Part shown: piece by piece, positions 1 through 17,964 of the stretch
Position numbering within the stretch: position 1 is the stretch's first letter
Layout of the letters: every line of letters starts with the position of its first letter
Virus record (IMG/VR): IMGVR_UViG_2563366946_000008
Source of the DNA: a virus
Lineage: Duplodnaviria > Heunggongvirae > Uroviricota > Caudoviricetes
Direction: 5' to 3' (one strand)
DNA length: 17,964 nt
The notes under the pieces: model-generated
Databases searched by the model: none
Told to the model about the DNA's origin: nothing
The model's input: the letters and a program-made list of their open reading frames with translations, nothing else
Made by a program: the position numbers and the translations under genes

Positions 1-1143
1 CTATGCTGTTTTGATATCTACGATAATCCAGTCTTTACCACGATCATCATTGTATCGGTCGGTCATTTTTCTGGATTTATGGCCTAACAACTTTTGCGTA
101 TCCAGACCCTGTTCCCGATATAACCGTTCTGACAGAGATCGCTGCTCATGAAATGTGGGCGCAGTTCCTTGCTCCCATTTTATGCCACATTTTTCCCGGG
201 CCTTTTTAAAAGCCGTTGTCAGAGTATTCGCAGAAACCTGGTCTCCTCTGTTTGCTTGAGAGGTAGTGTGACGGTAATGGACCAGATATTTACTAACAAC
301 AGCATCCCTGCACTGAGATATAACTTCACGAAGGGTAATATTCAGAGCATCGCATTTCAGGTTAAGCGGAATAGCAAGTTTTGAACCGGTTTTTTCCTGA
401 GTAATGTGCAACATGTCGTCCCATATATCAGAGAATTTCAAATTGCAGATATCGCCTAAACGTTGTCCAGTAACAAGAGCAAGTAGCATGCCGCATTTTA
501 AATAGGGCTGCCGTCTGCTTACGCTGTCAAATATTGCCTGCCATTCGGGCAGTGACAATCTTTGGCGGTTTACTCGATTTCGCGGTTGTTTTGTTGCCTG
601 CGCTGGGTTAAATCCTGGCGGAACATGTCCTGCGTGTTGTGCTTCTTTGAAGACGTCGATCAACACCATTCTCACGACTTGCGCCATCCTGTTATGACCT
701 TCAGCCTTTACAGCATCAATTATTTCGGCAATATCAAGTGCGGTAATATCCTTGAGGTGTTGCATTCCACAATGCTCACGGAAAAGACGAATGGGTTTGC
801 CTTTTTGCCGATAGGAGTTGGGTCTTAGTTCATTATGTTGCAGCCTGTCCTCTTGGATAGAAATATATTTATCAAGCCATTCTGTCACCGTAATGTCTGA
901 GCGCCTGCCTTTCATTCTTTCCAGACGCTCATTGACGCTTAATATTTGTCTGGTACGTTGTTCAGCAATAATGGTATTTGCTTCAGTAGCAACTTGTTTT
1001 GCTTCATTCTCATCAGTTCCTAAGCTATGAAAACGACCGGATAGTGGATGTTTGTATTGCCAATATACCTTTCCGGTTCGCTTATCTAATTTGCAATATA
1101 AATTGGGTATAGAGATTTTGTGAGATCGGGGTCTAGCAGCCAT
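1..1143 (-). CDS. int: Phage tyrosine integrase (site-specific recombinase), 380 aa
   Basis: Full-length ORF; C-terminal catalytic signature visible in translation (R in ...TGQRLGD..., H-x-x-R in ...FHEQRSL..., H and Y in ...LLGHKSRKMTDRYNDD...); overlaps the excisionase-like ORF by 11 nt as in lambdoid int-xis pairs. Stop codon is at window position 1-3, so the att site lies outside the window. Confidence 0.9.
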   Translation of the reverse strand: MAARPRSHKISIPNLYCKLDKRTGKVYWQYKHPLSGRFHSLGTDENEAKQVATEANTIIAEQRTRQILSVNERLERMKGRRSDITVTEWLDKYISIQEDRLQHNELRPNSYRQKGKPIRLFREHCGMQHLKDITALDIAEIIDAVKAEGHNRMAQVVRMVLIDVFKEAQHAGHVPPGFNPAQATKQPRNRVNRQRLSLPEWQAIFDSVSRRQPYLKCGMLLALVTGQRLGDICNLKFSDIWDDMLHITQEKTGSKLAIPLNLKCDALNITLREVISQCRDAVVSKYLVHYRHTTSQANRGDQVSANTLTTAFKKAREKCGIKWEQGTAPTFHEQRSLSERLYREQGLDTQKLLGHKSRKMTDRYNDDRGKDWIIVDIKTA

Positions 1144-2857: not shown

Positions 2858-3018
2858 ACCGCCCCCCGTTTATTATTTATCTCCTCAGCCAGCCGCTGGG
2901 CTTTCAGCGGATTTCGGATAACAGAAAGACCGTGAAATACCCAGCCTCGCTTTGTAACGGAGTAGACGAAAGTGATCGCGCCTACCCGGATATTATCGTG
3001 AGGATGGGTCATCGCCAT
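2830..3018 (-). CDS. Lambda orf60a-like small protein, 62 aa
   Basis: Immediately downstream of exo on the same strand and overlapping it, as in lambda. Confidence 0.55.
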
Positions 3019-3689
3019 TGCTCTCCAAATACAAAACCAATTTCAGCCAGTGCTTCGTCCATTTTTTCGATGAACTCCGGCACCATCTCGTCAAAACTCG
3101 CCATGTACTTTTCATCCCGCTCAACCACGACATAATGCAGGCCTTCACGCTTCATTCGTGGGTCATAGTTGGCAAAGTACCAGGCATCTTTTCGTGTCAC
3201 CCACATGCTGTACTGCACCTGGGCCATGTAAGCCGACTTTATGGCCTCGAAACCACCGAGCCGGAACTTCATGAAATCCCGGGAGGTAAACGGGCATTTC
3301 AGCTCAAGGCCATTGCCGTCACTGCATAAACCATCGGGAGAGCAGGCGGTGCGCATACTTTCGTCGCGATAGATGATCGGGGATTCAGTAACATTCACGC
3401 CGGAAGTGAATTCAAACAGGGTTCTGGCGTCGTTCTCGTACTGTTTTCCCCACGCCAGCGCCTTAGCATTAACTTCCGGAGCCACACCGGTGCAAACCTC
3501 AGCCAGCAGGGTGTGGAAGTAGGACATTTTCATGTCAGGCCACTTCTTTCCTGAGCGGGGCTTTGCTATCACGTTGTGAACTTCTGAAGCGGTGATGACG
3601 CCGAGCCGTAATTTGTGCCATGCATCATCCCCCTGTTCGACAGCTCTCACGTCGATCCCGGTACGCTGCAGGATAATGTCCGGTGTCAT
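3009..3689 (-). CDS. exo: Lambda exonuclease (Red alpha), 226 aa
   Basis: Translation ([40 protein letters not shown]...GFVFGEQWR) is near-identical to lambda Exo as I recall it; 226 aa; overlaps bet stop. Confidence 0.95.
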
Positions 3690-4471
3690 GCTGCCACCTT
3701 CTGCTCAGTGGCTTTCTGTTTCAGGAATCCAAGAGCTTTCACTGCTTCGGCCTGTGTCAGTTCTGACGATGCGCGAATGTCGCGGCGAAATATCTGGGAA
3801 CAGAGCGGCAATAAGTCGTCATCCCATGTTTTGTCCAGGGCAATCAGCAGAGTGTTAATCTCCTGCATGGTTTCATCGTTAACCGGAGTGATGTCGCGTT
3901 CCGGCTGACGTTCTGCAGTGTATGCGGTATTTTCGACAATGCGCTCGGCTTCATCCTTGTCATAGATACCAGCAAATCCGAAGGCCAGACGGGCACACTG
4001 AATCATGGCTTTATGCCGTAACATCCGTTTGGGATGCGACTGCCACGGCCCCGTGATTTCTCTGCCTTCGCGGGTTTTGAATGGTTCGCGGCGGCATTCA
4101 TCCATCCACTCGGTAACGCAGATCGGATGATTGCGGTCTTTGCGGTAAATCCGGCATGTACATGATTCATTGTCCTGCTCAAAGTCCATACCATCAAACT
4201 GCTGGTTTTCATTGATGATGCGGGACCAGCCATCAACGCCCACCACCGGAACAATGCCGTTCTGCTTATCAGGGAAGGCGTAAATTTCTTTCGTCCACGG
4301 ATTAAGGCCGTACTGGTTGGCGACGATCAACAATGCGATGAACTGCGCATCGCTGGCATCACCTTTAAATGCCGTCTGGCGAAGAGTGGTGATCAGTTCC
4401 TGTGGGTCGACAGAATCCATGCCGACACGTTCAGCCAGCTTCCCTGCCAGCGTTGCGAGTGCTGTACTCAT
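3686..4471 (-). CDS. bet: Lambda Bet (Red beta) single-strand annealing protein, 261 aa
   Basis: Translation ([100 protein letters not shown]...) matches lambda Bet; 261 aa. Confidence 0.95.
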
Positions 4472-4992: not shown

Positions 4993-5125
4993 TTTTTGGG
5001 ACTCCTGGCTGATTAAGTATGTCGATAAGGCGTTTCCATCCGTCACGTAATTTACGGGTGATTCGTTCAAGTAAAGATTCGGAAGGGCAGCCAGCAACAG
5101 GCCACCCTGCAATGGCATATTGCAT
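4961..5125 (-). CDS. cIII: cIII (FtsH/HflB inhibitor), 54 aa
   Basis: Not in the ORF track (under 60 aa). Manual translation of the minus strand from the ATG at 5125 gives [54 protein letters not shown], matching lambda CIII. Confidence 0.85.
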   Translation of the reverse strand: MQYAIAGWPVAGCPSESLLERITRKLRDGWKRLIDILNQPGVPKNGSNNYGYPD

Positions 5126-5197
5126 GGTGTGCTCCTTATTTATACATAACGAAAAACGCCTCGAGTGAAGCGTAATTGGTATGCGGTAACGCCGCGC

Positions 5198-6162: not shown

Positions 6163-6744
6163 ATGAACAACTCATGGTGGCAGGAACTAATGCATTTTTT
6201 CCTGCAAGGAATGACACTTAAACAGTTGATTCATATGCTAATCATCCTGATCATATTGATTATTGTTATGCCGGTAAGCGTAAAAGAATGGATAAACCTG
6301 CATAATCCAGAAATCCTTCCTCATTACTGGATGTATTACATCCTGTTGTTTTGCGTTAGCTATGTGCTTAACGGCGTTGTTAATTCCGCTTATCACGCTG
6401 TGACTGAAAGAATTGAGGTATTCGCTGCTCAGAAGCGCAAATCTAAAGAAGAAAAATATGTGCAAGATTTGTTTGATTCGTTAACTCTTGGAGAAAGAGC
6501 GTATTTGGCATTCGCTGTAGCCGCTAATAACCAGCTACAAACGGAAAAGGGCGCTCATGAATCAATTTCATTGCTCAAAAAAGGACTCCTCGTTCGAAGG
6601 CCTCCTGCTGTTGGATATCCTGATACCGACCGTTTCGTTATCCCTGAAAGCTATAGACATGAGTGCTACATTAGGTTTGCCAGGAAGGCAGACAGCCTTA
6701 TGGATGAACTTATCGCTCAGGATAAGCATGGCAAAAACAAGTAA
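6163..6744 (+). CDS. sieB: SieB superinfection-exclusion protein, 193 aa, membrane protein
   Basis: Opposite strand to the pL operon, in the lambda sieB position between ral and N; hydrophobic N-terminal segments (LIHMLIILIILIIVMPV, YYILLFCVSYVLNGVV); length matches lambda SieB. Confidence 0.8.
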   Translation: MNNSWWQELMHFFLQGMTLKQLIHMLIILIILIIVMPVSVKEWINLHNPEILPHYWMYYILLFCVSYVLNGVVNSAYHAVTERIEVFAAQKRKSKEEKYVQDLFDSLTLGERAYLAFAVAANNQLQTEKGAHESISLLKKGLLVRRPPAVGYPDTDRFVIPESYRHECYIRFARKADSLMDELIAQDKHGKNK

Positions 6745-7144: not shown

Positions 7145-8035
7145 TCAGGCTGCCAGATCATCGTTTCCGATGGAAGCATAATAAGCTTTTTCTGCTTCTG
7201 CCGGAGGAGTATGGCCCAGCCTTTCCAGCAATCGTCGATTGTTATACCAGTCCACCCACGTGAGTGTGGCCAGTTCCACTTCTGCACGGTTTTTCCAGCT
7301 CTTACGGTGTATTACCTCCGCTTTGTAAAGACCATTGATGCTCTCCGCCATCGCGTTGTCATACGAGTCGCCTGTACTTCCTGTTGATGCCAGTAATCCG
7401 GCTTCCTTAAGCCGCTGTGTGTAGGCCAGCGATACATACTGAGAACCTTTATCACTGTGATGGACCGTGCCGGACGGTCGACGGGCCCATAACGCCTGCT
7501 CCAGTGCATCCAGCACGAATGTCGTTTCCATGGACGATGAGACCCGCCACCCCACGATGTATCCGGCAAACACATCAATGATGAACGCCACATAGACGAA
7601 GCCCCGCCATGTGCTGACGTAAGTAAAATCAGCCACCCACAGCTGGTCAGGTCGTTCTGCCACGAACTGACGGTTTACGCGGTCGCCTGCGGCAACGGCT
7701 TTCCGGCTGATGGTCGTACGGACCTTTTTACCCCGGAGAACACCGGCAAGTCCCATAACCGCCATGAGACGTGCCACAGTGCATCTGGCCACTCTGATAC
7801 CTTCCCGTAACAACTGACGCCAGACTTTACGCACACCGTATACCTTGTGATTTTCATCGTATACGCGCTGTATCTCTTTCTTCAGCCAGTCATCGCGCTG
7901 CGCACGGGCACTGCGTTTATCCGGATGATGTCGCTGTTGCTGACAGTGGTAATACGTTGACGGGGCAATATGCAGTTCGCTGCATAGCGGTCCGACCCCG
8001 TACTGCTCACGCAGCTTATCCAGCAGTGGCATCAT
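7145..8035 (-). CDS. IS3-family transposase OrfB (DDE catalytic part), 296 aa
   Basis: 296-aa ORF overlapping OrfA by 4 nt; size and position typical of IS3-family OrfB integrase-like catalytic domain. Confidence 0.9.
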
Positions 8036-8358
8036 TTTTTCCAGAGGCGGTCGAACTCCGCCTTCGCAAAATAAGCGGAAGCCTGGCGAAGGATATCGTT
8101 ACTGCGGCGCAGTTCACGATTTTCACGTTCCAGCTCTTTCAGACGCTGACGTTCAGCGGTGGTGAGCCCTCCATCACCGCCCCCGGTATCCCGCTCATGC
8201 TGGCGAACCCAGACACGCAGAGTCTCCGGCGTACAGCCAATCTTTGGAGCAATGGAACAAATTGTCGCCCATTGTGAGTCATATTCGCTCTGACTTTCCA
8301 GAACCATACGAATCGCCCTCTGACGGACTTCGGGGGAAAAACGAGTATTTTTAGTCAT
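8032..8358 (-). CDS. IS3-family transposase OrfA (HTH DNA-binding part), 108 aa
   Basis: Translation [30 protein letters not shown]... matches IS629/IS1203 OrfA as I recall it; ends in an A6 run (TGG AAA AAA TGA) overlapping the OrfB start, the classic IS3-family -1 frameshift window. Confidence 0.9.
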
Positions 8359-8711: not shown

Positions 8712-9611
8712 ATGACAAATACAGCAAAAATACTCAACTTCTGCAGAGGTAACTTTGCCAAACAGGAGCGTAATGTGGCAGATCTCGATGATGGTTACGC
8801 CAGACTATCAAATATGCTGCTTGAGGCTTATTCAGGCGCAGATCTGACCAAGCGACAGTTTAAAGTGCTGCTTGCCATTCTGCGTAAAACCTATGGATGG
8901 AATAAACCAATGGACAGAATCACCGATTCTCAACTTAGCGAGATTACAAAGTTACCCGTCAAACGGTGCAATGAAGCCAAGTTAGAACTCGTCAGAATGA
9001 ATATTATCAAGCAGCAAGGCGGCATGTTTGGACCAAATAAAAACATCTCAGAATGGTGTATCCCTCAAAACGAGGGAAAATCCCCTAAAACGAGGGATAA
9101 AACATCCCTCAAATTGGGGGATTGCTATCCCTCAAAACAGGGGGACACAAAAGACACTATTACAAAAGAAAAAAGAAAAGATTATTCGTCAGAGAATTCT
9201 GGCGAATCCTCTGACCAGCCAGAAAACGACCTTTCTGTGGTGAAACCGGATGCTGCAATTCAGAGCGGCAGCAAGTGGGGGACAGCAGAAGACCTGACCG
9301 CCGCAGAATGGATGTTTGACATGGTGAAGACCATCGCGCCATCAGCCAGAAAACCGAATTTTGCAGGGTGGGCTAACGATATCCGCCTGATGCGTGAACG
9401 TGACGGACGTAACCATCGCGACATGTGTGTACTGTTCCGCTGGGCATGCCAGGACAACTTCTGGTCCGGTAACGTGCTGAGCCCGGCCAAACTCCGCGAC
9501 AAGTGGACCCAGCTCGAAATCAACCGTAACAAGCAACAGGCAGGTGTGACAGCCTGCAAACCAAAACTCGACCTGACAAACACTGACTGGATTTACGGGG
9601 TGGATTTATGA
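8712..9611 (+). CDS. O: Replication initiator O, 299 aa
   Basis: Translation MTNTAKILNFCRGNFAKQERNVADLDDGYARLSNMLLEAYSGADLTKRQFKVLLAILRKTYGWNKPMDRITDSQLSEITKLP... matches lambda O with a few substitutions; AGGAG RBS; contains the ori iterons. Confidence 0.95.
   Translation: MTNTAKILNFCRGNFAKQERNVADLDDGYARLSNMLLEAYSGADLTKRQFKVLLAILRKTYGWNKPMDRITDSQLSEITKLPVKRCNEAKLELVRMNIIKQQGGMFGPNKNISEWCIPQNEGKSPKTRDKTSLKLGDCYPSKQGDTKDTITKEKRKDYSSENSGESSDQPENDLSVVKPDAAIQSGSKWGTAEDLTAAEWMFDMVKTIAPSARKPNFAGWANDIRLMRERDGRNHRDMCVLFRWACQDNFWSGNVLSPAKLRDKWTQLEINRNKQQAGVTACKPKLDLTNTDWIYGVDL
9060..9190 (+). repeat. Lambda-type replication origin inside O: four ~19-bp iterons plus AT-rich unwinding region
   Basis: Four tandem imperfect palindromic iterons (ATCCCTCAAAACGAGGGA, ATCCCCTAAAACGAGGGA, ATCCCTCAAATTGGGGGA, ATCCCTCAAAACAGGGGGA) at about 9060-9145, followed by an A-rich tract ACAAAAGACACTATTACAAAAGAAAAAAGAAAAGATTATT. 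Confidence 0.85.
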
Positions 9612-10309
9612 AAAACATCGCCGCACAGATGGTTAATTTTGACCGTGAGCAGATGCGTCGGATCGCCAACAACATGCCGGAACAGTACGACGAAAAGCCG
9701 CAGGTACAGCAGGTAGCGCAGATCATCAACGGTGTGTTCAGCCAGTTACTGGCAACTTTCCCGGCGAGTCTGGCTAACCGTGACCAGAACGAACTGAACG
9801 AAATCCGCCGCCAGTGGGTTCTGGCTTTCCGGGAAAACGGGATCACCACAATGGAACAGGTTAACGCAGGAATGCGCGTAGCCCGTCGGCAGAATCGACC
9901 ATTTCTGCCATCACCCGGGCAGTTTGTTGCATGGTGCCGGGAAGAAGCATCCGTTATCGCCGGACTGCCAAACGTCAGCGAGCTGGTTGATATGGTTTAC
10001 GAGTATTGCCGGAAGCGAGGCCTGTATCCGGATGCAGAGTCTTATCCGTGGAAATCGAACGCGCACTACTGGCTGGTTACCAACCTGTACCAGAACATGC
10101 GGGCCAATGCGCTGACTGACGCGGAATTACGACGCAAGGCTGCCGATGAACTGACCTGTATGACAGCGCGAATTAACCGTGGTGAGACGATACCTGAACC
10201 AGTAAAACAACTTCCTGTCATGGGCGGCAGACCTCTAAATCGTGTTCAGGCGCTGGCGAAGATCGCAGAAATTAAAGCTAAGTTAGGACTGAAAGGAGCA
10301 AGTGTATGA
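9608..10309 (+). CDS. P: Replication protein P (DnaB helicase loader), 233 aa
   Basis: Translation MKNIAAQMVNFDREQMRRIANNMPEQYDEKPQVQQVAQIINGVFSQLLATFPASLANRDQNELNEIRRQWVLAFRENGITTMEQVNAGMRVARRQNRPFLPSPGQFVAWCREE... matches lambda P; start overlaps O stop (ATGA). Confidence 0.95.
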   Translation: MKNIAAQMVNFDREQMRRIANNMPEQYDEKPQVQQVAQIINGVFSQLLATFPASLANRDQNELNEIRRQWVLAFRENGITTMEQVNAGMRVARRQNRPFLPSPGQFVAWCREEASVIAGLPNVSELVDMVYEYCRKRGLYPDAESYPWKSNAHYWLVTNLYQNMRANALTDAELRRKAADELTCMTARINRGETIPEPVKQLPVMGGRPLNRVQALAKIAEIKAKLGLKGASV

Positions 10310-10669: not shown

Positions 10670-11110
10670 ATGAAAAAACTAACCTTTGAAATTCGATCTC
10701 CGGCACATCAGCAAAACGCTATTCACGCAGTACAGCAAATCCTTCCAGACCCAACCAAACCAATCGTAGTAACCATTCAGGAACGCAACCGCAGCTTAGA
10801 CCAAAACAGGAAGCTATGGGCCTGCTTAGGTGACGTCTCTCGTCAGGTTGAATGGCATGGTCGCTGGCTGGATGCAGAAAGCTGGAAGTGTGTGTTTACC
10901 GCAGCATTAAAGCAGCAGGATGTTGTTCCTAACCTTGCCGGGAATGGCTTTGTGGTAATAGGCCAGTCAACCAGCAGGATGCGTGTAAGCGAATTTGCGG
11001 AGCTATTAGAGCTTATACAGGCATTCGGTACAGAGCGTGGCGTTAAGTGGTCAGACGAAGCGCGACTGGCTCTCGAATGGAAAGCGCGATGGGGAGATCG
11101 GGCTGCATGA
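10670..11110 (+). CDS. ninB: NinB (Orf) recombination mediator, 146 aa
   Basis: Translation from the internal Met (MKKLTFEIRSPAHQQNAIHAVQQILPDPTKPIVVTIQERNRSLDQNRKLWACLGDVSRQVEWHGRWLDAESWKCVFTAALKQQDVVPNLAG...) matches lambda NinB; first gene of the nin region after ren. Confidence 0.85.
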   Translation: MKKLTFEIRSPAHQQNAIHAVQQILPDPTKPIVVTIQERNRSLDQNRKLWACLGDVSRQVEWHGRWLDAESWKCVFTAALKQQDVVPNLAGNGFVVIGQSTSRMRVSEFAELLELIQAFGTERGVKWSDEARLALEWKARWGDRAA

Positions 11111-11634
11111 CTATCAAATCAAATACGCCAGCACACGACAAGGACTGCTGGCAAACGCCGCTTTGGCTTTTTGATGCACTGGATATTGAGTTTGGATTCT
11201 GGCTGGATTCGGCAGCGAGCGACAAAAATGCTCTGTGCGCTCACTGGCTAACTGAGGACGACGACGCGCTCAATTCTGAGTGGGTAAGCCACGGTGCAAT
11301 CTGGAATAACCCACCGTACAGCAATATCAGGCCGTGGGTGGAAAAAGCCGCTGAGCAGTGTATACAACAGCGACAGACGGTAGTGATGCTTGTGCCAGAG
11401 GATATGTCTGTCGGATGGTTCAGCAAGGCTCTGGAGAGTGTTGACGAAGTTCGTATTATCACTGATGGACGGATTAATTTTATCGAACCATCGACAGGGC
11501 TGGAGAAGAAGGGAAACAGCAAAGGCTCCATGCTGCTGATTTGGCGACCGTTCATCAGTCCTCGACGGATGTTTACTACCGTATCCAAAGCGGCATTGAT
11601 GGCGATCGGGCAGGGCGTCAGGAGGGCTGCATGA
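11107..11634 (+). CDS. Phage Dam-like DNA N6-adenine methyltransferase (orphan, no cognate endonuclease nearby), 175 aa
   Basis: Contains the amino-methyltransferase catalytic motif NPPY (…[10 protein letters not shown]…); start overlaps ninB stop (ATGA); occupies the ninC/ninD slot of the nin region. Confidence 0.7.
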
Positions 11635-11807
11635 GACGACAGCGACGAAGCATCACCGACATAATCTGCGAAAACTGCAAATACCTTCCAACGAAACGCT
11701 CCAGAAATAAACGCAAGCTAATCCCAAAAGAATCTGACGTAAAAACCTTCAATTACACAGCCCACCTGTGGGATATCCGGTGGCTAAGATATCGTGCGAG
11801 GAAATGA
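11631..11807 (+). CDS. ninE: NinE-like protein, 58 aa
   Basis: Translation [58 protein letters not shown] resembles lambda/DLP12 NinE; ATGA overlap with the upstream gene. Confidence 0.7.
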
Positions 11808-12151
11808 CAATGGATTATTCACAGTTAAGTGATTTTGAAATTAACAGAATGGTAGGAGACATAATTTTTAAAGGCCTTTGGGCAAGTAAACCGGAAACAT
11901 CAGGGAATAACACCAACAAATGGTATTACGGAAATGCTGATACAACTTTTGAGCCATTAAATCATTTGCCTGACTACTGCAATGATCCGAGCGCTTCATG
12001 GCCGATTATTGAGAAATACAGGATTTCTATCTTAGACCAGTTAACTGAATGGTGTGTGGATGCAAAAGGCGTAAGCCCAATATTTGATACCAGACCTCTC
12101 CGCGCCGCCATGATTGTCTTTCTCCTGATGCAGGAGGCCAATAATGCTTAG
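11804..12151 (+). CDS. Hypothetical nin-region protein, 115 aa
   Basis: ORF translationally coupled to ninE (ATGA overlap, GAGGA RBS); no family recognised from sequence. Confidence 0.5.
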
Positions 12152-12338
12152 CCCATCTCAATCCCTTCAATACCTGAAAGAAAGCATAGAGCGGGCTTCA
12201 ATGTGCACAGAGTGGATTCTATCTAGGTTTAGCGCATACAGAAGATTGCCGGTAAAGGGCATGCCAAGCAAGTCGATGCTGCATATGCAAAAGAATGCGC
12301 GCTGGAAGGTATGGCGAGAACACAGGTTATGTGGCTGA
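12144..12338 (+). CDS. NinF-like small ORF (N-terminus [14 protein letters not shown]…), 64 aa; possibly frameshifted or mosaic
   Basis: Start overlaps the upstream stop; N-terminal residues resemble lambda NinF as I recall it, but the downstream part does not. A different frame (to 12361) carries a C-terminal-looking segment ending …[26 protein letters not shown] whose stop overlaps the rusA GTG start. Confidence 0.3.
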
Positions 12339-12357
12339 AAGAGGGGGTTATTAAGGC

Positions 12358-12720
12358 GTGAATACCTACAGCATCACATTACCCTGGCCTCCGAGCAATA
12401 ATCGCTATTACCGCCATAATCGCGGGCGCACGCACGTCAGCGCAGAGGGGCAGGCATACCGCGATAACGTCGCCCGAATCATTAAAAACGCAATGCTGGA
12501 TATCGGCCTGGCTATGCCTGTGAAAATCCGCATTGAGTGCCACATGCCGGATCGCCGTCGCCGTGACCTGGATAATCTGCAAAAAGCCGCTTTTGACGCA
12601 CTCACTAAAGCAGGTTTCTGGCTGGATGATGCTCAGGTCGTTGATTACCGCGTTGTGAAGATGCCTGTTACCAAAGGTGGGAGGCTGGAACTGACCATCA
12701 CCGAAATGGGGAATGAATGA
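12358..12720 (+). CDS. rusA: RusA Holliday-junction resolvase, 120 aa (GTG start)
   Basis: Translation [108 protein letters not shown]… matches the RusA family (acidic catalytic residues, DDAQ motif). Confidence 0.85.
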
Positions 12721-12857: not shown

Positions 12858-12942
12858 AGTCAGAGATAACAATCAACTAATACTGTTTTGTTGATTTTTG
12901 CTTGTAATTGGCGTTCTGGTCTGATTTTTGTGGAGTAAGTTG

Positions 12943-13326
12943 ATGCGTGATATTCAGATGGTTCTTGAGCGTTGGGGTGCGTGGGCGGCTAATAATCATG
13001 AAGATGTGACCTGGTCGTCCATTGCCGCCGGTTTTAAGGGATTAATTCCTTCAAAAGTAAAATCTCGCCCGCAATGTTGTGACGATGACGCGATGATCAT
13101 TTGCGGGTGCATGGCCCGTCTGAAAAAGAACAACAGCGATTTACACGATTTATTAGTAGATTATTATGTATGTGGTATGACATTCATGTCACTGGCAAGT
13201 AAGCATTGCTGCTCGGATGGTTATATCGGGAAAAGGTTACAGAAGGCTGAGGGCATAATTGAAGGGATGTTAATGGCATTAGATATCCGGTTAGATATGG
13301 ATATCGTTGCTAATAATTCTAATTGA
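12943..13326 (+). CDS. quuD: Q-like late-gene antiterminator (DLP12 QuuD type), 127 aa
   Basis: Translation from the internal Met ([62 protein letters not shown]…) with a cysteine cluster; GGAG RBS 7 nt upstream; last gene before the late region. Confidence 0.8.
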
Positions 13327-13514: not shown

Positions 13515-14597
13515 TTAGAACTGATAAACCAGACCTACAGCGACGATGTCGTCGGTATCAATACCAGCTGTTTTGGTAAACTTACTATCGTCAATTAAGT
13601 TGATTTTGTAATCAACAAAAGTGGACATGTTTTTATTAAAGTAGTAAGTAGCACCGACATCGACATACTTGACTAAGTCTCGGTCACCATGAACACCAAG
13701 GTCTTTACCTTTTGACTGAAGGTAAGCAACAGATGGACGCAGACCGAAGTCAAACTGATATTGTGCTACTGCTTCAAAGTTTTGTGCTTTGTTTGCAATA
13801 TGGTTATTACCAAAAACGGTCATATTCTGAGTTTCAGAATATGTGGTAGCCAGATAGATATTGTTCGCATCATATTTCAGGCCTGCAGCCCATACTTCCG
13901 CATTTTTGCCGGAGGCATTGAATTTGCTCTTACCATAGGCGACCTGACCGTCAGTGCGATCTGATTTAGCATAGGTTGCACCCACGCCGAATCCTTCATA
14001 CTCATAAGTAGTGGAGAAACCGAAACCATCACCATTGGCTTCAGTTACGTCAGTGCGGTCATTTTTACCCTGATACTGAGCAGCAAAGTTCAGGCCATCG
14101 ACCAGACCAAAGAAGTCGTTGTTACGATAAGTTGCAACACCAGTAGTGCGACCAGTCATGAACACATCTGTTTGGGTCCAGGTATCACCACCGAATTCTG
14201 GCAGAACGTCAGTCCACGCACCGATGTCGTATGCTACACCGTAGTTACGGCCGTAATCGATTGAGCCGTAATCACCAAATTTCAGGCCTGCAAATGCAAG
14301 ACGGGTTTTGTCTTTGGAAGAACCTTGAGATTCAGCACGGTTGCCTTTGAATTCATATTCCCACTGACCGAAACCAGTCAGTTGATCGTTGATTTGGGTT
14401 TCACCTTTGAAGCCAAGACGGGCATAAGTAGTATCACCATCATCTGCATCATTAGAGGAGAAGTAGTGCTTGGCATTAACTTTCCCGTATAGATCCAGCT
14501 TGTTACTGTCTTTATTATAAATTTCAGCTGCCTGAGCAGACATCGCCATCAGTACTGATGCAGCTACAGCAGAAATTGCCACTGTTAATTTTTTCAT
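13515..14597 (-). CDS. nmpC: Outer-membrane general porin of the OmpC/NmpC/Lc family (lysogenic-conversion moron), 360 aa with signal peptide
   Basis: Signal peptide [23 protein letters not shown] followed by [17 protein letters not shown]…, porin hallmarks (…PEFGGDT…, …[29 protein letters not shown]…, C-terminal …VAVGLVYQF). Start taken at the internal Met, not the track's upstream ATG. Confidence 0.92.
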
Positions 14598-15023
14598 TGT
14601 ACGCCCTTTTTTTGAACTATTATTAAAAAATGATATCACTGCGCGATAAATATTCATCTAATCAATGTGATTATTTCAAGATGTAAGTTTTAGTTTCTCA
14701 TTTAATTTGTGAAGTAGATCTCTATTTTTATCTGAACCTTTTCTATCTAATCCTATTCATGGCTCTTGTCTGAACAAAAATAAATCTATTAGCTAATTTA
14801 TATTAATGGCACTTATTTATAAGTGCTCTATAATTCTTTAGCTTAATTTAAACAAACTAAAAATAACATCGGAAATTATTAACTGGTTATTTGTTGAAGT
14901 TTTCTTATGCATTTGTGGTGGTGTTTTGAACACTCGGTGGCATTCTCACAAATATCATTTAGTAGTTTACGTACGTAAAAAATTGGTTATGCTGTTAAGA
15001 GTGGTTACTTCGTCACACAGCTT

Positions 15024-15185: not shown

Positions 15186-15401
15186 ATGAAATCCATGGAT
15201 AAGTTAACAACGGGTGTCGCCTATGGTACCTCAGCAGGTAGTGCCGGGTACTGGTTTTTACAGTTGCTCGATAAAGTCACGCCCTCACAGTGGGCGGCAA
15301 TAGGTGTGCTGGGTAGCCTGGTATTTGGCCTGCTGACGTACCTGACAAACCTTTATTTCAAGATTAAAGAAGATAAGCGCAAGGCTGCGAGAGGTGAATA
15401 A
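15186..15401 (+). CDS. S: Phage-21-type class II pinholin with dual-start motif (MKSM…), 71 aa
   Basis: Translation [71 protein letters not shown]: two transmembrane segments, Met1/Met4 dual start with Lys2, charged C-terminus; GAGGTGG RBS. Confidence 0.9.
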
Positions 15402-15898
15402 TGCCTCCATCATTACGAAAAGCCGTTGCTGCTGCTATTGGTGGCGGAGCAATTGCTATAGCATCAGTGTTAATCACTGGCCCAAGTGGTAACGATGGTC
15501 TGGAAGGTGTCAGCTACATACCATACAAAGATATTGTTGGTGTATGGACTGTATGTCACGGGCATACAGGAAAAGACATCATGCTCGGTAAAACGTATAC
15601 CAAAGCAGAATGCAAAGCCCTCCTGAATAAAGACCTTGCCACGGTCGCCAGACAAATTAACCCGTACATCAAAGTCGATATACCGGAAACAATGCGCGGC
15701 GCTCTTTACTCATTCGTTTACAACGTGGGTGCTGGCAATTTCAGAACATCGACGCTTCTTCGCAAAATAAACCAGGGCGATATCAAAGGCGCATGTGATC
15801 AGCTACGTCGCTGGACATATGCTGGCGGTAAGCAATGGAAAGGTCTCATGACTCGTCGTGAGATTGAGCGTGAAATCTGTTTGTGGGGTCAGCAATGA
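15401..15898 (+). CDS. R: SAR endolysin (T4-lysozyme-like muramidase with N-terminal signal-anchor-release domain), 165 aa
   Basis: N-terminal weakly hydrophobic Gly/Ala-rich segment [20 protein letters not shown] followed by a lysozyme-like catalytic region (E…D…T in …[24 protein letters not shown]…); start overlaps the holin stop. Confidence 0.9.
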
Positions 15899-16356
15899 AC
15901 AGAGTAACCGCGATTATCTCCGCTCTGGTTATCTGCATCATCGTCTGCCTGTCATGGGCTGTTAATCATTACCGTGATAACGCCATTACCTACAAAGCCC
16001 AGCGCGACAAAAATGCCAGAGAACTGACGCTGGCGAACGCGGTAATTACTGACATACAGATGCGTCAGCGTGATGTTGCTGCGCTCGATGCAAAATACAC
16101 GAAGGAGTTAGCTGATGCGAAAGCTGAAAATGATGCTCTGCGTGATGATGTTGCCGCTGGTCGTCGTCGGTTGCACATCAAAGCAGTCTGTCAGTCAGTG
16201 CGTGAAGCCACCACCGCCTCCGGCGTGGATAATGCAGCCTCCCCCCGACTGGCAGACACCGCTGAACGGGATTATTTCACCCTCAGAGAGAGGCTGATCA
16301 CTATGCAAAAACAACTGGAAGGAACCCAGAAGTATATTAATGAGCAGTGCAGATAG
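15895..16356 (+). CDS. Rz: Rz i-spanin (inner-membrane spanin subunit), 153 aa
   Basis: N-terminal transmembrane segment ([18 protein letters not shown]) followed by a charged, coiled-coil-like periplasmic domain; start overlaps the endolysin stop (ATGA). Confidence 0.8.
16115..16297 (+). CDS. Rz1: Rz1 o-spanin lipoprotein, embedded in the +1 frame of Rz, 60 aa
   Basis: Lipoprotein signal peptide with lipobox ([15 protein letters not shown]) followed by a proline-rich mature region ([18 protein letters not shown]); lies entirely inside Rz in another frame. Confidence 0.75.
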
Positions 16357-16387: not shown

Positions 16388-16681
16388 TTATTGTGAGCAA
16401 TACACACGCGCTTCCAGCGGAGTATAAATGCCTAAAGTAATAAAACCGAGCAATCCATTTACGAATGTTTGCTGGGTTTCTGTTTTAACAACATTTTCTG
16501 CACCACCACAAATTTTTGCTGCATCGACAGTTTTCTTCTGCCCAATTCCCGAAACGAAGAAATGATGGGTGATGGTTTCCTTTGGTGTTACTGCTGTAGG
16601 TTTGTTTCCAACAGTAAACGTCTGTTGAGCACATCCTGTAATAAGCATTGCCAGAGCGGCAGAAAACAACATTTTTTTCAT
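16388..16681 (-). CDS. bor: Bor lipoprotein (serum-resistance moron), 97 aa
   Basis: Translation from the internal Met, MKKMLFSAALAMLITGCAQQTFTVGNKPTAVTPKETITHHFFVSGIGQKKTVDAAKICGGAENVVKTETQQTFVNGLLGFITLGIYTPLEARVYCSQ, matches lambda Bor; lipobox LITGC; opposite strand to the lysis genes as in lambda. Confidence 0.9.
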   Translation of the reverse strand: MKKMLFSAALAMLITGCAQQTFTVGNKPTAVTPKETITHHFFVSGIGQKKTVDAAKICGGAENVVKTETQQTFVNGLLGFITLGIYTPLEARVYCSQ

Positions 16682-17161
16682 CTTATTATCCTGCATTGTT
16701 AAAAACGGCAGAATCCTATGTGACAACAATTAAACGATAGTTAAATGGATTGATGAAAATTAAAACTACACAGGTGGGCTCAGACTATTGGAGGAAGTTG
16801 GGGACACTCAGAATCCTGTGGAATGAAATAAACCGGTCTATCCGTCCATTACCCTTTTAGCTGCGCTGTATCGTCGCCGTATTCCCGCATTAACCATGAC
16901 CGTAGCCCGACGGGGAATTCCTTCTGCGTGAGTGTGCGGGAATAATTAAAAACGATGCACACCGGGTTTTTACCGCGTTAATGATTCGCGGGTTTATCCC
17001 GGTGCGATGGTGGAAGAAACAGGAAGCTGTATTACAGAAAGTGCTACTACTGTATCCCGATGCGATGTATGTAATGTGAGTCAGATAATGGCACAGGATG
17101 TGGTGATGTGGCAGTCTGGAACACAGGATATATTGTCAGAATAAGACCCGTAGGAATAAAA

Positions 17162-17488
17162 ATGAAAAGACGCCTTTTACTACTTTTTCTGTTATCTGTC
17201 CTGGCAGTGGGATGCTCGCAGCAAAAAGCTGATGAGCCCCGGCAATTAGTGACGGTGTATCCACGATATCCGGAATATGCTGCAGCAAATTATATCAAGG
17301 GGCTGGTTGAGGTTAAGTTCGATATTGGTGCTGATGGGACTGTGACACGGATCGTTTTTCTCCGCTCAGAGCCTCATAATTTGTTTCGTGATGAAGTGGT
17401 GAAGGCCATGGCGAAATGGCGATTTGAAAAGAATCGCCCCTGTCAGGGAGTGAAGAGACAATTTATCTTTACGCCGTCACGTCCTTGA
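17162..17488 (+). CDS. Lipoprotein with a TonB C-terminal-domain-like fold, 108 aa
   Basis: Lipoprotein signal peptide with lipobox (MKRRLLLLFLLSVLAVGC); the mature part (…VYPRYPEYAAANYIKGLVEVKFDIGADGTVTRIVFLRSEPHNLFRDEVVKAMAKWRFEKN…) aligns by eye with the TonB C-terminal domain (…[56 protein letters not shown]…); AGGAA RBS. Confidence 0.6.
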   Translation: MKRRLLLLFLLSVLAVGCSQQKADEPRQLVTVYPRYPEYAAANYIKGLVEVKFDIGADGTVTRIVFLRSEPHNLFRDEVVKAMAKWRFEKNRPCQGVKRQFIFTPSRP

Positions 17489-17580
17489 TGCTTCCAGGTA
17501 GAGAGGGGCTGGAAGCAGGAGAAAAATGAAAGAGCCAGCGGTTATATTTTTGTCATGGCTGACGAGGAATGATGGAAGAA

Positions 17581-17610: not shown

Positions 17611-17964
17611 TCATTTCTTCTTTTTCTCTGGTGGAACCCGATGAATAAGAGTTGCACTGGTTTCCGATGAGATGGCGATATACTCGGGCAAAGTATGCTG
17701 GCAGTTTTCCAACTGGTCAAAAATACCTGCTCTCGTCTGTTGCAATGCCTGCAGCATGCGGCGGCAATGCGCCTTGCTTTTACTAACCATCTTTCCTTCC
17801 TCTATCAGTCGCTGCGTGAACTCATCATGGAATACCAGGTAAATGCGGATGTTATCGGTTTTGGCTACGCAGCATAGTACAAAACGGACAGGTGCATCCC
17901 GGGACGGGGGAGGCGTCACATGTCCCTGTGATGGTTGTTCCGGGTAATGTACTGTGTGGGGCAT
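17611..17964 (-). CDS. Hypothetical ORF running to the window edge (possibly partial), 117 aa as seen
   Basis: ORF from the track; no family recognised; its C-terminal KKKK is encoded by the T-rich tail of the adjacent hairpin, which lowers confidence that it is a real gene. Confidence 0.25.
   Translation of the reverse strand: MPHTVHYPEQPSQGHVTPPPSRDAPVRFVLCCVAKTDNIRIYLVFHDEFTQRLIEEGKMVSKSKAHCRRMLQALQQTRAGIFDQLENCQHTLPEYIAISSETSATLIHRVPPEKKKK

Follow-up and report, generated by a model that had tools for sequence, protein, structure and literature searches.

The 17,964-nucleotide stretch of viral DNA analyzed here (IMG/VR record IMGVR_UViG_2563366946_000008), referred to as the window, represents the left arm of a prophage of the phage 21 type, whose integration site, icd, was observed in the Nissle copy. 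Close to its right end lies a gene for a protein of 108 amino acids (aa), in which a lipoprotein signal peptide is fused directly to a TonB C-terminal domain (TonB_C). The gene and its parts are located as follows.

16970-17161, plus strand: upstream region specific to the module (allele alignments)
17152-17155, plus strand: Shine-Dalgarno sequence AGGA, 6 nt 5' of the ATG (sequence; the phage 21 record annotates a ribosome-binding site there)
17162-17488, plus strand: coding sequence of the 108-aa TonB_C lipoprotein, stop codon included (open reading frame, sequence, Pfam TonB_C)
17162-17215, plus strand: lipoprotein signal peptide, residues 1-18, MKRRLLLLFLLSVLAVGC (read directly from the sequence)
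17216-17236, plus strand: tether SQQKADE, residues 19-25, from the lipid anchor to the domain (low predicted local distance difference test [pLDDT] score; outside the TonB-aligned part)
17237-17476, plus strand: TonB C-terminal domain, residues 26-105, equivalent to E. coli TonB 153-232 (alignment to 1u07, 2gsk, and 2grx; AlphaFold; Foldseek)

The reading frame is intact and runs for 108 codons from the ATG at 17162 to the TGA at 17486-17488. A longer, mechanically called open reading frame (ORF) with a GTG start at 17108 is also listed, but phage 21 and RefSeq both use the ATG; the encoded M1 is conserved throughout the lipoprotein family described below. The signal peptide consists of an MKRR n-region, a hydrophobic core, and the lipobox L-A-V-G-C, whose cysteine (Cys18, codon 17213-17215) is followed by Ser at position +2. 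This cysteine is invariant in all 13 family members that were aligned. The +2 residue of the relatives is S, T, A, or V, and in none of them Asp. In E. coli, lipoproteins without Asp at +2 undergo Lol-dependent sorting to the outer membrane. Based on this rule, with Ser at +2 and no Asp among the relatives, the mature protein is predicted to be an outer-membrane lipoprotein. The segment N-terminal to the TonB-aligned part serves as the tether, with a length of approximately 8 residues; mean pLDDT values in this region are 52 (residues 11-20) and 84 (residues 21-30). A disulfide role for Cys94 was considered and rejected, as this position is Arg in other alleles and is therefore not conserved.

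The initial annotation had recognized the TonB C-terminal domain by eye, and profile searches bear it out. Pfam TonB_C (PF03544) matches the protein with an E value of 7.3e-13 and 49.2 bits (cutoff, 24.6), and TIGR01352 matches with 47.4 bits (cutoff, 27.1). When queried against solved structures using phmmer, the protein retrieves E. coli TonB (1u07) with an E value of 1.4e-14, residues 24-103 aligning to TonB 151-230 without gaps. Its identity to the E. coli TonB domain amounts to 38-40%. The motifs YP, KFD..DG, and F.EV..AM..WR.E, first read by eye, are aligned columns in the alignment with 1u07. Full-length NCBIfam TonB equivalogs score 45-69 bits, against cutoffs of 265-448, and cover their last ~80 positions only. 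Scores this far under the cutoffs, confined to the C-terminal part, mark the product as a TonB-domain protein and not a TonB. Consistent with the initial annotation, the 108-aa protein contains neither the TonB transmembrane anchor nor the proline-rich region.

Residues Y36/P37, F53, F75, W86, F88, and F103 pair with TonB Y163/P164, F180, F202, W213, Y215, and F230, respectively. The YP motif and the aromatic residues F180, F202, W213, and F230 are kept, and Y215 is replaced by Phe. The last four residues of TonB are missing from the protein.

An AlphaFold (AF2) model built on an alignment of 40 sequences reaches a pLDDT of approximately 97 across residues 30-105; an earlier input of six close homologs had given a poor pLDDT of 61. 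Foldseek comparison of the model with 1u07, 2gsk_B, and 2grx_C yields template modeling (TM) scores of 0.90-0.92 and root mean square deviations (rmsd) of 0.9-1.6 Å. The best superposition is obtained with the TonB chains of the BtuB:TonB (2gsk_B) and FhuA:TonB (2grx_C) complexes (TM score, 0.92; rmsd, 0.9-1.0 Å), and the folded part is essentially the TonB fragment crystallized on BtuB and FhuA. The beta3 strand, which in TonB pairs with the TonB boxes, corresponds to residues 94-103 of the model. All significant matches among solved structures are TonB proteins, and TolA domain III appears among the weak fold matches. The BFVD viral structure library contained no match at E≤1e-3, and a PADLOC search gave no defense-system match.

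Genomic setting and distribution of the gene

The remaining features of the window show the following arrangement.

1-1143, minus strand: integrase
3009-4471, minus strand: YqaJ/RecT recombination genes
5080-5138, minus strand: lambda cIII thermoregulator RNA element (full-length match, 88.5 bits)
6163-6744, plus strand: SieB
7145-8358, minus strand: IS3-family insertion (HTH_Tnp_1 and rve ORFs; ALIL frameshift pseudoknot at 7961-8077, 120 bits)
8712-10309, plus strand: replication genes O and P
11047-12720, plus strand: Dam, NinX, and RusA
12928-13326, plus strand: Q antiterminator
13515-14657, minus strand: OmpC/NmpC-type porin gene, 380 aa (annotated as ompC in the Nissle prophage)
15401-16356, plus strand: SAR (signal-arrest-release)-type endolysin and Rz/Rz1
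15883-16356, plus strand: Rz (PF03245, profile match)
16115-16297, plus strand: Rz1 (PF06085, profile match)
16388-16681, minus strand: bor/iss lipoprotein gene (Pfam Lambda_Bor, E value of 2e-30; iss in Nissle)
16859-16969, plus strand: conserved lambdoid junction block forming the left edge of the module (blastn boundaries; equivalent to lambda 46865-46974, between bor and lambdap78)

For the viral set, 80 loci were kept, each with a full-length copy of the gene. In all 80 viral contigs, the TonB_C gene is on the late-gene strand, with Rz before it and the small terminase gene behind it. In both alleles, blastn puts the module's left boundary at the same position, 16862. It falls at the junction block, a segment of ~110 nt that occurs in 432 phage records, including lambda, 933W, and VT2-Sakai. 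Positions 16862-17050, comprising the block and the next ~80 nt, are ~90% identical between the alleles, compared with only ~70% for the coding regions. At either threshold used, no Rfam family matched in or near the gene or in the junction block.

The module also occurs together with a different lysis cassette, whose endolysin is ~32% identical, and with different terminases. Among distant phage relatives, the gene of P0037 is positioned between a DUF2514 spanin gene and an HNH/terminase module and that of P0015 between Rz1 and HNH/terminase. In a Serratia prophage copy, the stop codon of the gene overlaps the start of the small terminase gene. The bor/iss gene lies 480 bp upstream of the TonB_C gene, in divergent orientation, and is a neighboring moron that was acquired separately. 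The position next to bor, on which the initial annotation had remarked, is thus correct for the window, but it does not hold as a general rule, since about half of the related loci among the 80 viral contigs lack bor. The presence of the module varies independently of its flanks (two lysis cassettes, different terminases, with or without bor), making it a moron-like, single-gene cargo module at the end of the lysis cassette of several phage types. The gene is not phage specific, however, as chromosomal orthologs exist in other Enterobacterales.

Over the 601 bases around the gene, identity is 100% to phage 21, which lists the product (CPT_21_73) as "TonB C-terminal domain protein," and 100% or 99.8% to phages ev017, Perceval, PhiR47_2, PhiR57_1, and PhiR63_2. 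Among 5,426 complete E. coli genomes, 1,225 carry the window allele, including the probiotic Nissle 1917 (WP_000830178.1, "TonB family protein"). The prevalence of the phage 21-type allele is therefore about a quarter of E. coli genomes. A second allele, with ~72% protein identity, is found in 417 E. coli genomes, a set that may overlap the first, and in Shiga toxin 1 (Stx1) phages. Of the sequenced E. coli, roughly a quarter to a third encode such a TonB mimic. Other records label the product "partial tonB-like membrane protein," "TonB fragment," or "Rz-like spanin" (PHROG 1267). Full-text literature searches on this protein and on TonB-domain lipoproteins retrieved no functional study; it is known as an annotation and is apparently unstudied as to function.

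The same prophage type also carries sitABCD, which encodes an iron/manganese ATP-binding cassette (ABC) importer independent of TonB (phage 21, L129:13968-17417; Nissle prophage, L132:11461-14910). These genes are present in all seven phage records with the 100% allele and in none of the seven with the 74% allele; of 27 sit-positive phages, 20 have no TonB-domain gene. The idea that sitABCD is an obligatory compensation for a TonB block was rejected as a general rule, since the linkage is limited to the phage 21-type allele.

Several further features of the window were recorded. The IS3-family element is inserted between sieB and replication gene O, where the immunity region is expected, and the prophage may for this reason be defective. 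The porin gene between Q and the lysis genes represents a second outer-membrane cargo, reminiscent of the porins encoded by lc of PA-2 and nmpC of DLP12. Downstream of the TonB_C gene, two overlapping ORFs on opposite strands (17611-17964, minus; 17695-17877, plus) match PHROGs 4843 and 3744, which have function-less labels (both with E values of ~3e-46); the 60-aa ORF on the plus strand is the one annotated by RefSeq and in the phage 21 record. Two nucleotides after the TonB_C stop codon, positions 17490-17516 form an 8-bp stem, GCTTCCAG...CTGGAAGC, with an 11-nt loop. It has no T-run and is not a predicted terminator. Upstream of the gene, a 45-aa ORF (17007-17144, plus) annotated as hypothetical in phage 21 is probably no gene: it has 17 codons in the 72% allele, and only its first ~8 codons are conserved, which lie inside the conserved upstream block.

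Short TonB-domain lipoproteins and their upstream regions

A word-based homolog search recovered E. coli alleles only. An exhaustive profile search revealed a wider family of short relatives at 31-44% identity, each starting with a lipobox. In named genomes, these relatives occur in Raoultella, Klebsiella, Serratia, Erwinia, Pantoea, and Pseudescherichia. Their genes are chromosomal in several hosts, adjoining lacZ/lacI in Klebsiella and Raoultella, near dsbB/nhaB in Serratia grimesii, and near ahpCF on a chromosome-like Logan (sequencing-read) contig. The gene probably stems from an older family of small enterobacterial lipoproteins, which is not restricted to phages. In a neighbor-joining tree of the domains, the short lipoproteins cluster with the E. 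coli phage alleles in a clade of their own, apart from the canonical enterobacterial TonB domains. Separately, a 152-aa lipoprotein (P0141) has a TonB domain that clusters with the canonical domains and not with this clade, which suggests that a lipoprotein signal peptide was joined to a TonB domain on a separate occasion. Among the top profile hits are many long proteins of ~450-900 aa that carry TonB_C domains in tandem, three to five in each (P0038, P0041, P0064, and P0105, among others).

Comparison of the window allele with the 72% allele gave a ratio of nonsynonymous to synonymous substitution rates (dN/dS) of 0.12, at a dS of ~1.4. The gene is under purifying selection. Taken together with the invariant lipobox cysteine and the separate clade, this shows that it is not a decayed tonB fragment. 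The labels "partial tonB-like" and "TonB fragment" in several records would suit a dead remnant of a captured tonB, an explanation to which we give hardly any credence: the low dN/dS spans alleles that are only 70% identical, all 80 viral loci have a full-length copy, the signal peptide and lipobox are the gene's own and conserved, and the domain is both distant from E. coli TonB in identity (38-40%) and outside the canonical clade.

Upstream of the gene, two conserved islands were found in an alignment of four E. coli alleles, namely GTC.GATAAT at 17080-17089 and ATTGT.AGAATAAGAC at 17131-17146. The second resembles an extended -10 element (TGnCAGAAT) and is the sole candidate promoter of the window allele. 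From the late promoter region to the TonB_C gene, the plus strand contains no predicted terminator. By analogy with lambda, the gene is likely read with the late operon, in which case it may be made mainly during lytic growth.

For the wider family, the 70 nt upstream of each gene were scanned against the 19-mer Fur consensus, with a match threshold of at least 14 of 19 positions. Fourteen of 19 family genes reach it (maximum, 17/19), in contrast to only 2 of 275 control ORFs from the same loci. The positive control, sitA, scores 17/19, and the canonical tonB promoters in the fetched loci score 12/19 in 22 of 25 loci and 10/19 in the other three. The Fur boxes are located 8-45 nt upstream of the family genes (loci L134, L083-L090, L092, L095, L125, L136, and L139). 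The P0037 phage contig has a perfect 7-1-7 Fur box, TGATAATTATTATCA, at a distance of 15 nt upstream of the start codon (L134:320-345). These boxes imply that the relatives have promoters of their own. Through Fur, iron starvation is predicted to induce the family as a whole, which would represent an apparently undescribed Fur-regulated lipoprotein family in Enterobacterales. Fur boxes in most relatives point to a role in iron-starvation physiology, beyond phage exclusion alone. In the 72% and 67% E. coli alleles, which match the consensus at 13/19, a palindrome, AGAATAAGACTTATTCT, lies over a -10-like TAGAAT. A 13-nt gap in the window allele removes the right half of this palindrome, and the window copy seems to have lost Fur control.

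Possible function and relation to known systems

The predicted location and the fold suggest how the protein could act. The lipid anchor would insert into the inner leaflet of the outer membrane; the sole folded part of the protein is the TonB C-terminal domain. Held near the periplasmic face of TonB-dependent transporters, this domain could bind their TonB boxes by TonB-like beta-strand pairing; alternatively, it could pair with the C-terminal domain of TonB itself. Since the protein has no TonB membrane anchor and no proline-rich arm, it would transmit no energy, and either binding mode would lead to competition with TonB and reduced TonB-dependent import. For the host, the expected outcome would be a lower sensitivity to T1, phi80, group B colicins, several microcins, and albomycin. 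Expression would occur with the late operon, possibly supplemented by a weak promoter of the gene's own. We therefore put forward, tentatively and with somewhat less than even confidence, that this outer-membrane TonB-domain lipoprotein competes with TonB and dampens TonB-dependent import. Two precedents exist. When periplasmic fragments of TonB are produced in vivo, TonB-dependent transport is inhibited (Howard et al. 2001, as cited in PMC9841981), and Llp of T5 is a small outer-membrane lipoprotein that acts on the periplasmic face of FhuA.

Several observations weigh against such an inhibitor. Four TonB features, which we take to be positions implicated in transporter contacts, are not conserved: Q160 is replaced by Tyr, R158 by Thr, R166 by Tyr, and the ANM loop by HNL. 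For docking from the side of the outer membrane, the tether leaves only ~8 residues. Blocking TonB constitutively would carry a cost, yet siderophore-dependent extraintestinal strains commonly have the gene. No site upstream of the window gene passed a simple promoter scan, and the window (phage 21) allele has no Fur box, with a match of only 9-10/19. The relatives have chromosomal genes whose predicted inducer is iron starvation, a condition in which TonB is needed, and with such induction a modulator or helper fits at least as well as an inhibitor. A function at the TonB-dependent import step is plausible and probably broader than phage exclusion.

The protein could instead be a noninhibitory accessory of iron acquisition that helps or tunes TonB-dependent transporters under iron starvation, for instance through retention of TonB or exposed TonB boxes at the outer membrane or through a preference for some transporters over others, and that phages carry as a host-fitness gene like sitABCD. 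This is a serious candidate, though on balance an unlikely one. The Fur boxes upstream of 14 of 19 relatives, the ordinary nonphage neighborhoods of the chromosomal orthologs, and the frequency of the gene in strains that need TonB all agree with it, as does the presence of sitABCD in phage 21, the Nissle prophage, and all seven phage records of the 100% allele. However, the sit linkage is not general (0/7 for the 74% allele; 20/27 sit-positive phages without the gene), the Fur box is lost in the window allele, and transport is inhibited, not helped, by soluble TonB fragments (Howard et al. 2001, as cited in PMC9841981). Furthermore, we are aware of no way in which an unenergized TonB domain could promote transport.

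Two other explanations place the protein outside iron transport. It might be an envelope tether, its TonB-like domain binding peptidoglycan or another periplasmic structure and stabilizing the outer membrane with no specific action on transporters. TonB- and TolA-type domains have been proposed to contact peptidoglycan, TolA domain III is among the weak fold matches, and another envelope lipoprotein gene, bor, adjoins. Against this, the nearest matches in both sequence and fold are all true TonB domains, TonB-specific motifs are kept, the Fur link points to iron, and profile searches of Pfam and NCBIfam gave no peptidoglycan-binding family, which makes a tether improbable. Still less probable is a late function as a spanin-like component or other helper of lysis or virion release, which would account for the match to PHROG 1267 ("Rz-like spanin"; E value of 5e-43), for the constant position directly after the spanin genes in late-operon orientation with no predicted plus-strand terminator in between, and for the stop codon overlapping the small terminase start in the Serratia prophage. 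Yet a complete Rz/Rz1 pair is already there, the protein has a TonB fold and lacks both the C-terminal membrane segment that a u-spanin needs and the features of a proline-rich ~60-aa Rz1-type protein, and the chromosomal orthologs with Fur boxes have no lysis genes nearby. The spanin label of PHROG 1267 was presumably transferred because of gene position.

A more speculative scheme, which we regard as rather doubtful, goes further. Here, the small TonB-domain lipoproteins would form a Fur-controlled "TonB gate" that is widespread in Enterobacterales and was captured by temperate phages, with the Fur operator of the phage 21 allele deleted so that expression became constitutive or late. If this is true, iron starvation would flood the outer membrane with transporters and the gate would occupy exposed TonB boxes, limiting their hijack by TonB-dependent phages, colicins, and microcins. 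The family would then be a new class of exclusion or tolerance factor, acting on the whole transporter family and not on a single receptor.

Iron, vitamin B12, many phages, colicins, microcins, and siderophore-antibiotic conjugates all enter through TonB-dependent transporters. A naturally occurring TonB mimic with a lipid anchor, encoded by a gene overlooked behind a generic annotation, could alter the sensitivity to all of these agents together. If it is inhibitory, it would represent a new type of phage-borne protection at a shared energy-coupling step, with relevance to phage therapy, the ecology of bacteriocins in the gut, and drugs that use these transporters for entry, such as cefiderocol. 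The predicted Fur control of the chromosomal relatives would add an unstudied member to the iron-starvation response of Klebsiella, Serratia, and related bacteria.

The closest known counterpart is the C-terminal domain of TonB itself (E. coli TonB ~150-239; 1u07, 2gsk, 2grx), with which the phage protein shares the fold, 38-40% identity, the YP motif, the aromatic core, and the beta3 strand. In contrast to TonB, it has no inner-membrane anchor and no proline-rich spacer, and hence no coupling to ExbB/ExbD, but a lipid anchor predicted to reside in the outer membrane. Artificial periplasmic TonB fragments resemble it in placing the C-terminal part of TonB in the periplasm without the energy-coupling part, and such fragments inhibit transport by FhuA and FecA (Howard et al. 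2001, J Bacteriol 183:5885, as cited in PMC9841981). They differ in being soluble, overexpressed laboratory constructs, whereas the gene described here is natural, conserved, and predicted to yield a lipid-anchored product.

Llp of T5 and Cor of phi80, N15, and HK022 are likewise small phage-encoded outer-membrane lipoproteins that are thought to act from the periplasm on a TonB-dependent transporter. The initial annotation had suggested an outcome analogous to that of the Cor proteins, a comparison that does not hold up well. The TonB_C lipoprotein has no fold or sequence relationship to Llp or Cor (BFVD, Foldseek against solved structures, Pfam, PADLOC). Moreover, Llp and Cor block FhuA, the receptor of the phage that carries them, whereas a TonB mimic is expected to act on many transporters. 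The J tail-tip protein of phage 21 aligns with lambda J along the entire length at 83% identity, the C-terminal receptor-binding part being related as well, and the receptor of phage 21 is likely to be of the porin type and not FhuA. With such a lambda-like J, exclusion from the phage's own receptor is unlikely, and the analogy to Cor is weak.

The morons of the lambdoid late region (bor, lom, and the porin genes lc of PA-2 and nmpC of DLP12) are similar in being single-gene envelope cargo of the late region that varies in presence and absence. The TonB_C lipoprotein belongs to another protein family, and its gene is co-oriented with the late operon. Among the spanins, an o-spanin is a proline-rich lipoprotein of ~60 aa encoded within or adjoining the i-spanin gene, and a u-spanin is a lipoprotein with a C-terminal membrane segment; the TonB_C protein is globular, with a TonB fold, and lacks a hydrophobic segment at its C terminus. 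A TonB mimic tethered to the outer membrane would combine elements that are each known, namely, TonB domains and phage lipoproteins that target transporters.

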